NCBI GenBank assembly: GCA_028068195.1
Contig: JAPTTX010000086.1
Coordinates: 5,407-69,406, forward strand
DNA from: Gammaproteobacteria bacterium
GTDB lineage: Bacteria > Pseudomonadota > Gammaproteobacteria > Acidiferrobacterales > UBA6901
Direction: 5' to 3'
Length of the DNA stretch: 64,000 nt
Each line of letters opens with the position of its first letter. Positions within the stretch are counted from its first letter, which is position 1. The position numbers were made by a program, and so were the translations under genes. A model generated the notes under the pieces. The model ran no database searches. It was not told the origin of the DNA and was given only the letters and a program-made list of their open reading frames with translations. Of the stretch, positions 40,629 to 42,662 are shown in pieces.

Positions 40629-41777
40629 TCACGGCACCTCCTCGAAGTCAAGACTCAGCCCGTCGGGAGCTAACAGGCGGAAACGACCGTCGGCGAACGC
40701 GACGTGGCCGGTATGATCACGGTAGCTTTCGATGACGGCCGGATGGGCGAAGCGCACCAGCCAGCAGTAGCGGTAACCGGCATCCGGGCACAAGGCGCGC
40801 CCGGTAAACACGGCACGCACGCCCGGGATCGCGCCGAGGATCCGGCGGCCGTCGGCCATCATGGCCCGCGCCGCACGCTCGCCTTCGTCCCCGCCGGGCG
40901 CGACGTTATACACGATGCAATGCTCCACCGGCCTCCATGGCCGGCAGTGCGCCTGCGCCTCTGGTGCGCGCCCGGCCGAACCCGACAGCCGCAGACAGCG
41001 CTCGACTTCCGCGCCAAGCGCCTGTTGCACGCCCTTCATCAGGCGCAGATAGCCGTTGCGCGGAGTGGCGCGCACGTTGCGCCGCAGGCACCCGCCGGCT
41101 GCGCGCGACAGACCGGCGTAGTGGTGGATCTTTGCGACACCGCGCTCGATCAGCCGCTGATACTCGGCGTCGGTGAAGTCCCGGACGGCGTCCACGGCCA
41201 GCGGTAGCGCCGTCGCGCCGCGAATGTCTTCGAGCCGTGCGAAATCCAGTCTCGCCAGCGGAACCGGCGAGGCATCGGCCACCGCCAGGACATCAATACC
41301 GGTATGCTCGACGTACCGGCGGACGACGTCGAGCGAGGCGGGCGACTCGCCCGGAAGGTGCGCGATGGCGTTCAATCCGCCCTCTACCGGCACGCCGCAG
41401 CCATGCGCCATTTCGACCACCGTGCGGATTCGGGCGATATGTTCCTCGGGTGTGCGCCCTGCTCCATTCAGCGCGACGCCGTTGCACCCGAGACCGATCG
41501 CGCGCACCGCGGCGGCGACCGAGGCCACGCGGGTGAATTGAATCGCCACCGGAACCGAGGTGCGGCGCGCCGCTGCTTCAACCGCCGGCAAAAAATGTTC
41601 GGCGGCGAGATGGTCGAGGTGCGGTTCCGCAACGCCGAGGATCGCCGGCGCCCGGCAGTTCTCGGCGGCGGTTACCGCCGCGGCCAGGAAATCGAGGCCC
41701 GCCAGGTCGAAGGAACACACAGCGTAGCCGCGGCTGCCGGCATGTTCGAGCAGGTTTCTCGCATCAACGAGCGGCAT
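40629..41777 (-). CDS. class II ketose-bisphosphate aldolase-like domain (metal and catalytic residues apparently replaced) fused to a C-terminal Dabb (stress-responsive alpha/beta barrel) domain
   Basis: The N-terminal roughly 280 aa are collinear with class II FBA/GatY (MPLVDARNLLEHAGSRGYAVCSFDLAGLDF...APAILGV). However, VPVAIHLDH is VPVAIQFTR, the VHG position is ADASP and the LHGG position is AVDAV. The C-terminal roughly 95 aa (HCIVYNV...YCWLVRFAHPAVIESYRDHTGHVAF) looks like a Dabb domain. Confidence 0.7.
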   Translation of the reverse strand: MPLVDARNLLEHAGSRGYAVCSFDLAGLDFLAAAVTAAENCRAPAILGVAEPHLDHLAAEHFLPAVEAAARRTSVPVAIQFTRVASVAAAVRAIGLGCNGVALNGAGRTPEEHIARIRTVVEMAHGCGVPVEGGLNAIAHLPGESPASLDVVRRYVEHTGIDVLAVADASPVPLARLDFARLEDIRGATALPLAVDAVRDFTDAEYQRLIERGVAKIHHYAGLSRAAGGCLRRNVRATPRNGYLRLMKGVQQALGAEVERCLRLSGSAGRAPEAQAHCRPWRPVEHCIVYNVAPGGDEGERAARAMMADGRRILGAIPGVRAVFTGRALCPDAGYRYCWLVRFAHPAVIESYRDHTGHVAFADGRFRLLAPDGLSLDFEEVP

Positions 41778-42333
41778 TGGCGGTGCGCTTCCTGTCTAAT
41801 TGACAGCGTGACACTGCTGCGCCGGTGGCAAGGGATCGTTCGCCGCGCCGGCCACCTGGCAAGCCGGCCTCCTGCAACACGAAGCTCCTGAACACCCCGG
41901 TCGCGCAGGAAAGGCATTTCTCCAGCCGATGAATGCGGAGCAAGCCATCTCGAATCCCCTTGAGTCGGTCGAGTGCGGTCGCGACTGCGGCCGGCTGGCG
42001 GCTGATTTCCGGGCAGCTGTGCAGCAGCCCGCGGCTCGCCGCCGCGAGGCAGAGGCGCTTGCCGATCGGCTCGAACAACGCCACACCGAGCTGGTGCGTA
42101 TAACGCCTTCGGGACACGACGCGAGGGGGGCGTCGGCCGCTGGCGCGTCCGGCGCGGATTGCCGCGCCGGCTCCGCCACGCACCAGCACCGTAACGCAGC
42201 GGCCACCGACGAGGTACCGGCCGTTCAATCGCACCTCCACGGCATTGGTCATGGCGTTGGCGCCTTCAAACACCGGCACCAGGCCGCGGGTCTGGATCAT
42301 GTCCAATGCAATGCCCATTTTCTCGCGTGCCAT
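41764..42333 (-). CDS. divergent CsoS1-like BMC-H domain protein with a roughly 110-aa non-BMC C-terminal extension (possibly a decaying paralog)
   Basis: MAREKMGIALDMIQTRGLVPVFEGANAMTNAVEVRLNGRYLVGGRCVTVLVRG compares with CsoS1 [53 protein letters not shown]. The edge Lys and Asp are replaced and similarity fades after about residue 75. Overlaps the next gene by 14 nt. Confidence 0.55.
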   Translation of the reverse strand: MAREKMGIALDMIQTRGLVPVFEGANAMTNAVEVRLNGRYLVGGRCVTVLVRGGAGAAIRAGRASGRRPPRVVSRRRYTHQLGVALFEPIGKRLCLAAASRGLLHSCPEISRQPAAVATALDRLKGIRDGLLRIHRLEKCLSCATGVFRSFVLQEAGLPGGRRGERSLATGAAVSRCQLDRKRTANAAR

Positions 42334-42458
42334 ACCCGACTTCCGTTCTGTCACATTGAAATCAATACTCGCTGCCCCACGCGTGGCACCCAAACTCCAC
42401 TCCGTCTCCGGCCAGAGATCGGTAATCCCGCCGAGGGTGAGCAGGATGCGCAATCTAT

Positions 42459-42662
42459 CTACCGTTCCTCAGGCGGCAACGCCATTTTTCCCAGTTGGGC
42501 AAGGGCAGCGCGTCGTTCGCGCGCTTGGCGCCGAACGACGCCGATCATGGGTTTCAGTTCCTGCGCCGCGGCGAGAGCATCTTCGACGGTGGGGGCTTTA
42601 TTCGCCTGACCGGGGGCCGAAGGGAACTGGGGTTTGTGCGCCGAATCGCGTTCATCAGCCAT
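42459..42662 (-). CDS. small hypothetical protein (67 aa; disordered N-terminus, amphipathic helical C-terminus)
   Basis: GAGGA lies 7 nt upstream of ATG 42662. No homology recognised. Confidence 0.4.
   Translation of the reverse strand: MADERDSAHKPQFPSAPGQANKAPTVEDALAAAQELKPMIGVVRRQARERRAALAQLGKMALPPEER

Follow-up and report, generated by a model that had tools for sequence, protein, structure and literature searches.

Does a shell-protein-like gene that lies just outside a complete alpha-carboxysome locus form a working module with the aldolase-like gene that it overlaps? This question is raised by a 64,000-nt stretch of contig JAPTTX010000086.1 (assembly GCA_028068195.1) from a gammaproteobacterium of the Acidiferrobacterales lineage UBA6901, hereafter the window, to whose whole length all positions refer and in which the open reading frames (ORFs) of this finding and the carboxysome locus lie on the minus strand. 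A first-pass annotation, made from the sequence alone, had described three neighbouring ORFs, and we find their coordinates, and the 14-nt overlap between the second and the third, to be as it gave them:

42662-42459, minus strand: orf67, a real 67-aa gene that belongs to a small-protein family
42333-41764, minus strand: BMC-like ORF, 189 aa from its ATG, or 229 aa from an upstream TTG
41777-40629, minus strand: aldolase-like::Dabb gene, 382 aa, characterised by Pfam, an AlphaFold2 (AF2) model, the ratio of nonsynonymous to synonymous substitution rates (dN/dS) and synteny

Our analysis separates the members of this group. The BMC-like ORF is a pseudogene and probably the debris of a displaced native carboxysome locus, and the aldolase-like::Dabb gene encodes a maintained protein that is not an aldolase; a BMC-aldolase module does not exist.

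Domains, active site and maintenance of the aldolase-like::Dabb protein

The two domains proposed for the 382-aa protein are both present. Pfam F_bP_aldolase (PF01116) matches residues 5-270 with E=6e-32, and Dabb (PF07876) matches residues 285-379 with 28.1 bits, above its cut-off of 25; the class II aldolase-type TIM barrel spans residues 1-275 and the Dabb domain residues ~285-382. The AF2 model is confident (predicted local distance difference test score, pLDDT, 90.8; predicted TM-score, pTM, 0.89), Foldseek comparison of this model with class II aldolases gives target-normalised TM-scores of 0.82-0.92, and phmmer comparison of the protein with the solved structures 7NCC, 1GVF and 6OFU gives E=1e-18 to 3e-21. 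In the model the Dabb domain has the ferredoxin-like beta-alpha-beta-beta-alpha-beta topology of this family (E284-290, H297-315, E320-327, E337-343, H348-369, E373-379), and phmmer matches it to the Dabb protein 3BDE (E=8e-6).

Homology to class II aldolases in sequence and in fold does not extend to the ligands, the loops or the NCBIfam scores. Alignments to 7NCC, 1GVF, 6OFU and 104 ligand-bearing relatives place T82, R83, a deletion or Val, and D196 of the window protein at the positions of AgaY D82, H83, H180 and H208, so that no intact His/Asp set is found and the substitution of the metal and catalytic residues, read by eye in the first-pass annotation, is borne out against both solved structures and intact relatives. 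The motif HLDHG has become IQFTR, the GTVHG segment has been deleted or replaced, the phosphate loop IHGGTG reads VDAVRD, and the catalytic loop VEGELGY..EGEDAExHPGE is changed to VEGGLNA.. and is 5-9 residues shorter. All 17 matching NCBIfam aldolase models score under their cut-offs, the best of them, NF005284, with 142.5 bits against 406; the database annotation of the protein is nevertheless 'class II fructose-bisphosphate aldolase'. Judged by these alignments, the protein cannot act as a Zn-dependent ketose-bisphosphate aldolase, because it has neither the metal site nor the Asp nor the phosphate loop on which the established class II mechanism depends.

Our search of 5.8 billion proteins returned 961 matches and showed the fusion architecture to be widespread in sulfur-oxidising Gammaproteobacteria. 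The best 120 of these 961 homologues fall into three monophyletic groups of 71, 33 and 16 members. The first group keeps D-H-E-H-H (the Asp-His dyad together with the Glu and the two other His), and the second has D-H-V/I-Q-H, a natural pair of Glu-to-Val/Ile and His-to-Gln changes. The third, which includes the window protein, is a ligand-less clade in which no member has the full set, whereas the other 104 proteins keep D-H...H. Within this clade position 82 is T, N, A, S, H or K, the H208 position is Asp in 16 of 16 members, and His is still present at position 83 in two (P0006 and P0012). Clade-wide, HLDHG is changed to IQF(T/N/H/A)R, the GTVHGR segment is deleted, IHGGTG is changed to VD(A/T/G)V(R/K)x and KINYYT to KIHHYA, and 67 columns with a conservation of at least 90% among the catalytic relatives are altered. 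New residues have in turn become fixed (F81, N136 and D196), with R83 and H219 present in most members.

These changes have occurred in a protein that is still maintained. Thirteen of the ligand-less proteins are full length, down to 54% identity (clade range 54-100%), and in all 10 pairs compared, and in both domains, dN/dS of the aldolase::Dabb gene is 0.19-0.33, the same range as for the LysR, NUDIX::ThiE and McdA genes of the locus. This is purifying selection, and the protein therefore still has some function. The gene of this clade follows the alpha-carboxysome locus each time (synteny, six lineages), in the ancestral order LysR, aldolase::Dabb, NUDIX::ThiE. The protein is shown to be folded and selectively maintained, and, defined operationally as a protein that has lost its catalytic residues and retained its fold under purifying selection, it is a pseudoenzyme, as the first-pass annotation had offered for this member of the pair in one of its two alternatives. 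In some members of the clade the Dabb domain has been lost by deletion with the position at the carboxysome locus unchanged (L017 8001-8882, L018 2531-3412, P0015 and P0020).

The window gene has the PF01116 plus PF07876 architecture and the position at the 3' end of a RuBisCO/carboxysome cluster that go with the name 'CbbA', and lacks the intact active site that this name implies. Two ligand-bearing relatives, P0042 and, from the His-to-Gln clade, P0116, are the last genes of cbbL-cbbS-cbbQ-cbbO-orf~125 operons, and other ligand-retaining relatives do not adjoin cbb genes. The window gene derives from such CbbA-Dabb aldolases that close RuBisCO operons. P0116 (L021/L022 8001-9257) and 32 others are monophyletic, and at least some of them end cbbL-cbbS-cbbQ-cbbO operons; in them Glu-to-Val/Ile at the alternative ligand accompanies a replacement of His by Gln at the second Zn ligand, and the latter change was also engineered for the H180Q structures 5UD1-5UD4 of H. 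pylori fructose-bisphosphate aldolase, which were among our fold-search matches. An unannotated ORF of ~125 aa lies between cbbO and aldolase::Dabb in two independent cbbLSQO operons (L019 7573-7953, L021 7577-7951) and has no Pfam match.

A scan of cluster representatives extended the family to 2316 relatives. Among the 148 nearest 50%-identity representatives (P0204-P0351, beyond P0004 and P0014), all five ligand and catalytic positions are kept in only 12; in many of these proteins the aldolase part has been shortened by internal deletions, in nearly all of them the Dabb domain is complete, and His-to-Arg at the first ligand recurs. Two further forms were seen at a distance from carboxysomes. 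In metagenome-assembled genomes of Rhizobium sp. Q54 (L008 10001-10760, and L007), a 253-aa protein joins ~the first 120 barrel residues, without ligands, to an intact Dabb domain, and its neighbours (peptidase M17, NAPRTase, PhoX) are unrelated to cbb genes. In L028 (434-1576, P0212), a ligand-poor aldolase::Dabb protein (D-R-E-V-D) is encoded beside genes resembling those of an NAD-reducing Hox-type hydrogenase.

What might such a protein do? With its remodelled pocket, its oligomeric barrel and its Dabb domain it would most probably act by binding, and it would probably serve the CO2-fixation regulon in a regulatory or accessory capacity, being expressed together with the CbbR-like regulator. 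A more specific version is possible, though we put it forward tentatively and consider it doubtful as a whole: that the ligand-less protein is a dedicated non-catalytic factor, accessory or regulatory, of the regulon of carboxysome and Calvin-Benson-Bassham (CBB) genes, either as partner or effector sensor of the CbbR-like regulator or as a binder of RuBisCO or a CBB enzyme; that the fusion family consists largely of pseudo-aldolases in which the Dabb domain and the remodelled pocket are the functional parts; and that the 67-aa protein of orf67 is a new component of the CO2-concentrating mechanism (CCM).

A new enzyme is a rather unlikely alternative, in which the remodelled pocket (R83, D196, N136, H219), the Dabb domain or both would catalyse a novel reaction that needs no metal and is connected with carbon fixation or sugar-phosphate metabolism. 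Some dimeric alpha+beta barrel proteins are cofactor-free enzymes, the replacements at former active-site positions are invariant in the clade, and His-to-Arg at the first ligand has arisen in many independent lineages of the fusion family, all of which would suit such a reaction. Against this, the loop that binds the phosphate of dihydroxyacetone phosphate has been deleted or replaced, as has the mobile catalytic loop, and several positions of the old active site are variable in the clade, among them 82 (T/N/H/A/S/K) and 218. It is improbable, again by some margin, that the gene is instead a decaying CbbA pseudogene made redundant by another aldolase. Decay would account for the loss of all catalytic residues, for the three clade members without Dabb, and for the frequent degeneration or internal deletion of the aldolase part in the fusion family at large, but it does not account for full-length ORFs in 13 lineages down to 54% identity, for selection on both domains like that on functional neighbouring genes, for new residues that are invariant within the clade and a confidently predicted fold, or for the retention of this gene while the native genes that flanked it were deleted.

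The BMC-like ORF as a csoS1/LysR relic

The CsoS1-like start and the weak second half of the BMC fold reported for the 189-aa ORF are both seen in profile searches. Pfam PF00936 aligns over profile positions 1-61 of 75 with 23.2 bits, under its cut-off of 24.5, and the NCBIfam CsoS1 model over positions 1-64 of 93 with 67.9 bits, far under its cut-off of 166. The ORF has neither a complete BMC-H domain, nor the edge and pore residues, nor the selection and stable frame of a member of this family: the C-terminal third of the fold is missing and, by blastn, 204-205 nt of csoS1-derived sequence are 75% identical to each of the two intact csoS1 genes of the window (46660-46863 and 47007-47209). 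We resolved the following elements in and beside it, the last of which was also recognised by alignment to L009, one of three Acidiferrobacterales contigs (L009-L011) that carry the orthologous stretch and whose aldolase-like protein is 87% identical to that of the window:

42129..42333, minus strand: csoS1-derived part of the relic, the start codon and ~68 codons covering the N-terminal two thirds of the BMC-H domain
41932..42156, minus strand: LysR/CbbR-derived part, N-terminal piece, from the recognition helix of the helix-turn-helix (HTH) to the linker helix, ~LysR residues 23-98
41866..41934, minus strand: LysR-derived part, C-terminal piece (HRxEKRFS..AF..FVLQE), ~LysR residues 273-295
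41788..41793, minus strand: Shine-Dalgarno sequence (AGGAAG) for the aldolase-like gene, 10 nt ahead of the ATG and kept in the L009 lineage

The tail following the CsoS1-like start had been described as non-BMC, which is correct as far as it lies outside the BMC fold, but it is recognisable debris of a CbbR-type LysR regulator. Its translation contains the LysR motifs LGVALFEPIGKRL and HRLEKCLSCATGVFRSFVLQE, and in tblastn searches it matches the carboxysome-locus LysR of L012, L014 and L017 at 48-50% identity along 76 aa (E as low as 2.5e-15), and the window's own LysR at 42% identity. Tail residues 77-99 correspond to LysR residues ~273-295 and are 54-64% identical to those of L012, L014 and L017. 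In comparison with the CbbR-type LysR regulators of cso/cbb operons, the tail aligns to the HTH-linker region and the C-terminus, and the LysR N-terminus and the entire effector-binding domain have been deleted; Pfam finds neither HTH_1 nor LysR_substrate in it.

Comparison with the L009 lineage demonstrated how little of this ORF is conserved. The csoS1-like start is common to the window and L009-L011, and indels of 3 nt, 1 nt (frameshifting) and 213 nt, with other small ones, separate them downstream. In L009, and again unlike a CbbR-type LysR regulator, the LysR-like pieces are in another frame than the csoS1 piece and are broken by stops, and a different internal LysR segment is kept than in the window relic. 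The hexamer-edge and pore sites, which are identical in all intact CsoS1 copies, are differently mutated in the two relics: AMTKA at the edge has become AMTNA in the window, as the first-pass annotation had noted, and AMTRG in L009, and GGGY at the pore has become GGRC in the window and G-GY in L009. Between the two relics dN/dS of the csoS1 piece is 0.96, which is neutral, against 0.05 for intact csoS1 and the purifying values given above for aldolase::Dabb.

The ORF nevertheless remains open from the csoS1 ATG to the aldolase-like gene in L009 and L011 (258 aa) as well as in the window. We counted only ~1-4 stops per 100 codons in off-frame stretches of local genes, and a long open frame across debris is unremarkable for this reason; a frame-specific G+C profile failed to tell the relic from coding sequence, since the ORF consists of formerly coding pieces. 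The ORF is open only through pieces that happen to be in frame and the scarcity of stop codons in DNA of 67% G+C, and the relic has also been joined to the former intergenic leader that preceded the aldolase-like gene.

The BMC-like ORF is a non-functional chimeric pseudogene and not a shell protein; deletion has joined a csoS1 start to two pieces of a CbbR-type LysR gene. The proposal that it is a neofunctionalised, shell-derived adaptor, translationally coupled to the aldolase-like protein and working with it, is highly improbable. It could appeal to the uninterrupted frame down to the 14-nt overlap in both lineages (189 and 258 aa) and to the first ~60 residues, which are still recognisably CsoS1. 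An adaptor would not, however, be expected to evolve neutrally, to lack the last third of its domain with the edge Lys and the pore motif mutated, or to carry a tail of LysR debris that differs in content, and mostly in frame, between two lineages; the gene caller skipped the ORF in L010, although the DNA there is identical to that of L009, and accidental ORFs of this length are expected at the stop frequency given above. The relic is absent from L012, L014, L016 and L017, where the aldolase-like gene stands directly after LysR with a gap of 18-49 nt, and because this gene occurs in four other lineages without any such ORF there is no conserved BMC/aldolase pair. Recurrence of the pair beside carboxysome loci, which had been proposed as a check, is confined, among the lineages compared, to the relic in L009-L011.

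Gene order of the locus and origin of the relic

The window carries a complete alpha-carboxysome locus (cbbL, cbbS, csoS2, csoSCA, csoS4A/B and two csoS1 genes), together with a ferritin-like gene, a pterin-dehydratase-like gene, ParA/McdA and a small McdB-like ORF. Past the McdB-like ORF the order is LysR, NUDIX::ThiE, orf67, BMC-like ORF, aldolase-like::Dabb, orf172, purE, purK. The landmarks used here are:

53454-51859, minus strand: cbbL, carboxysome locus
47210-46911 and 46869-46528, minus strand: two intact copies of csoS1, carboxysome locus
43828..44889, minus strand: intact CbbR-type LysR regulator (Pfam HTH_1 and LysR_substrate), end of the resident carboxysome locus
42866..43921, minus strand: NUDIX::ThiE/TenI fusion gene (Pfam and synteny)

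The distance of 1.5 kb given earlier between the BMC-like ORF and the last carboxysome gene holds only if that gene is LysR, which ends at 43828, but the interval is not empty, as NUDIX::ThiE and orf67 intervene.

L012, L014, L016 and L017 share the order cso genes, pterin-dehydratase-like, McdA, McdB, LysR, aldolase::Dabb, NUDIX::ThiE, (SulP), purE, purK. A second arrangement, in L025-27, has no aldolase-like gene and runs from cso genes to LysR, NUDIX::ThiE and orf67. NUDIX::ThiE, which follows the aldolase-like gene in the ancestral order, precedes it in the window, and the window and L009 look like the L025-27 arrangement followed by remnants of the L012-type arrangement. Synonymous divergence (dS) between the window and L012 falls along the same division, with 0.40 for aldolase::Dabb, 0.38 for purE and 0.55 for orf172, and 0.90-1.18 for csoSCA, csoS4A, McdA, LysR and NUDIX::ThiE. 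The LysR pieces of the relic also have more in common with the L012 and L017 regulators than with the co-resident LysR. This indicates that the carboxysome locus is a mosaic in which the carboxysome block has been replaced (42866-53454 versus 38109-41777, against L012).

We infer that a more divergent carboxysome locus displaced a native one, of which the relic is a remnant. The native order would have been cso genes, csoS1, McdAB, LysR, aldolase::Dabb, NUDIX::ThiE, purEK; a divergent block, from cso genes to LysR, NUDIX::ThiE and orf67, would then have arrived upstream and made the native locus redundant, and this locus would have been lost piecemeal by deletion, with the aldolase::Dabb gene alone retained. 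The earlier suggestion of a decaying duplication is essentially correct for the relic, which evolves neutrally and in an unstable frame, but the evidence favours a displaced native locus over a plain tandem copy. That the resident locus was duplicated in tandem was rejected as the sole origin of the relic, because the dS values against L012 are much lower for aldolase::Dabb, purE and orf172 than for the cso, LysR and NUDIX::ThiE genes. In L009 (9146-9808) and L011 (6669-7331), a second, truncated NUDIX gene (220 aa, no ThiE domain), not present in the window, directly follows the aldolase-like gene, with 55% identity to the intact NUDIX::ThiE of the same genome and ~60% to the L012/L014 versions; it is probably another remnant of the native locus.

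The third ORF of the group, orf67, is a real gene tied to CCM loci and not to the aldolase-like gene. Its good Shine-Dalgarno sequence, remarked on earlier, is GAGGA, 7 nt upstream. The family comprises 83 unannotated protein clusters of 61-99% identity that share the motif HKPQFxSAPGQARK...RRxARERRAALAxxGKMALPPE, with 17 invariant columns in an alignment of 18 sequences and a dN/dS of 0.20. Relatives lie upstream of cbbL in the complete genome L023 (5001-5228), after DabB-DabA-PII in L024 (5001-5204) and after LysR-NUDIX::ThiE in L025-27 (L025 7001-7207). Membership of orf67 in the displaced native locus was rejected, as orf67 follows LysR-NUDIX::ThiE in L025-27, which are without the aldolase-like gene.

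Further features of the surroundings were recorded. Downstream of the aldolase-like gene, orf172 (40016-40534, minus strand) is a conserved hypothetical gene that is also near purE in L009 and L012, with dN/dS of 0.37-0.43 and no match in Pfam or NCBIfam. After McdA, at 44898-45110 (minus strand), lies a low-complexity ORF of 70 aa with the C-terminus ...MRIWPD, which has counterparts of 60-71 aa in all related loci; a C-terminal Trp is typical of alpha-carboxysome McdB. Divergent from cbbL is a DAB-type inorganic-carbon transporter operon (53958-59493, plus strand; a DabB-like antiporter subunit, a 249-aa ORF and a 1127-aa DabA), downstream of which are a second LysR regulator and an IS110-family transposase (60109-61233 and 62209-63252, plus strand). 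A promoter and terminator scan of 40400-43000 detected no promoter-like site, and the single terminator-like site was inside the aldolase-like gene and within chance expectation.

Weight of the evidence and known systems

Several points weigh against the reading of debris beside a maintained non-aldolase protein. The non-catalytic role is deduced solely from residue loss, selection and synteny, and the new invariant pocket residues could equally be compatible with a new, metal-independent catalysis. P0014, P0015 and P0020 of the ligand-less clade have no Dabb domain, which tempers models centred on Dabb, shows the two domains not to be equally indispensable and may mean that some lineages are losing the gene. 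NUDIX::ThiE and purEK look like housekeeping genes, and the linkage to the carboxysome could partly be positional inheritance. Finally, the displacement scenario is based on pairwise dS with one main comparator (L012), and dS is sensitive to codon bias, with cbbL and cbbS intermediate at 0.48 and 0.63.

If debris beside a maintained non-aldolase protein is nevertheless the right reading, both halves of it have uses. Carboxysome and RuBisCO operons are being catalogued and moved into crops and industrial hosts, which makes their accessory genes important, and aldolase::Dabb would be a mis-annotated accessory gene of chemoautotrophic carbon fixation, possibly a regulatory one; many of its relatives may also be non-catalytic, given the 12 of 148 nearest representatives with a full ligand set. 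An apparent 'orphan shell protein' can be a leftover of carboxysome-locus replacement, which calls for caution, and such debris is a datable footprint of carboxysome gene turnover.

Among known systems, the protein shares the TIM barrel and a collinear sequence with class II aldolases (FbaA, AgaY/KbaY, YdjI, SqiA; 1GVF, 1RV8, 6OFU, 7NCC), and differs from them in having no metal site or Asp-His dyad, a shorter catalytic loop and an additional Dabb domain. That it is an ordinary class II fructose- or sedoheptulose-bisphosphate aldolase with merely mis-aligned ligands, as its database label and strong Pfam homology would have it, has next to no probability and is refuted at the sequence level by the ligand alignments (T/R, a deletion and D at the Asp/His/His/His positions) and by NCBIfam scores far under every cut-off. 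GatZ and KbaZ, non-catalytic partners of class II tagatose-bisphosphate aldolases, are an example of an aldolase-related protein kept without aldol catalysis, and they provide a precedent for the window protein by analogy, although they belong to a different family; no gene for a catalytic aldolase partner was found within the 64-kb window.

The closest known counterpart, compared by domains and position, is the cbbA gene of A. ferrooxidans. Its 16-gene cbb1 carboxysome operon ends in a co-transcribed cbbA (ACK80290.1) with Pfam01116 and Pfam07876, and a second, plain cbbA is found in the cbb3 operon (PMC2942843). The window gene encodes the same pair of domains and likewise stands at the 3' end of a RuBisCO/alpha-carboxysome cluster, and its protein is 46-52% identical to the ligand-bearing fusions that end cbbLSQO operons. 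Unlike ligand-bearing CbbA-Dabb proteins, however, the window clade is without the Asp, the three His, the catalytic loop and the phosphate loop, and the window gene follows McdAB-LysR where its CbbA-Dabb relatives follow cbbQ-cbbO. The first-pass annotation knew of no described system with this composition, and for the loss of ligands this stands, in that our search of the literature on Dabb, aldolase, RuBisCO, pseudoenzyme and carboxysome found no description of a ligand-less aldolase::Dabb protein; for the architecture it does not, given the A. ferrooxidans cbbA (PMC2942843). The aldolase-plus-Dabb architecture and its carboxysome linkage were known already, and the conserved loss of catalytic residues appears to be undescribed. 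The pseudo-aldolase is in this sense a variant of a known RuBisCO-operon protein, and the relic beside it is ordinary debris with an informative history.

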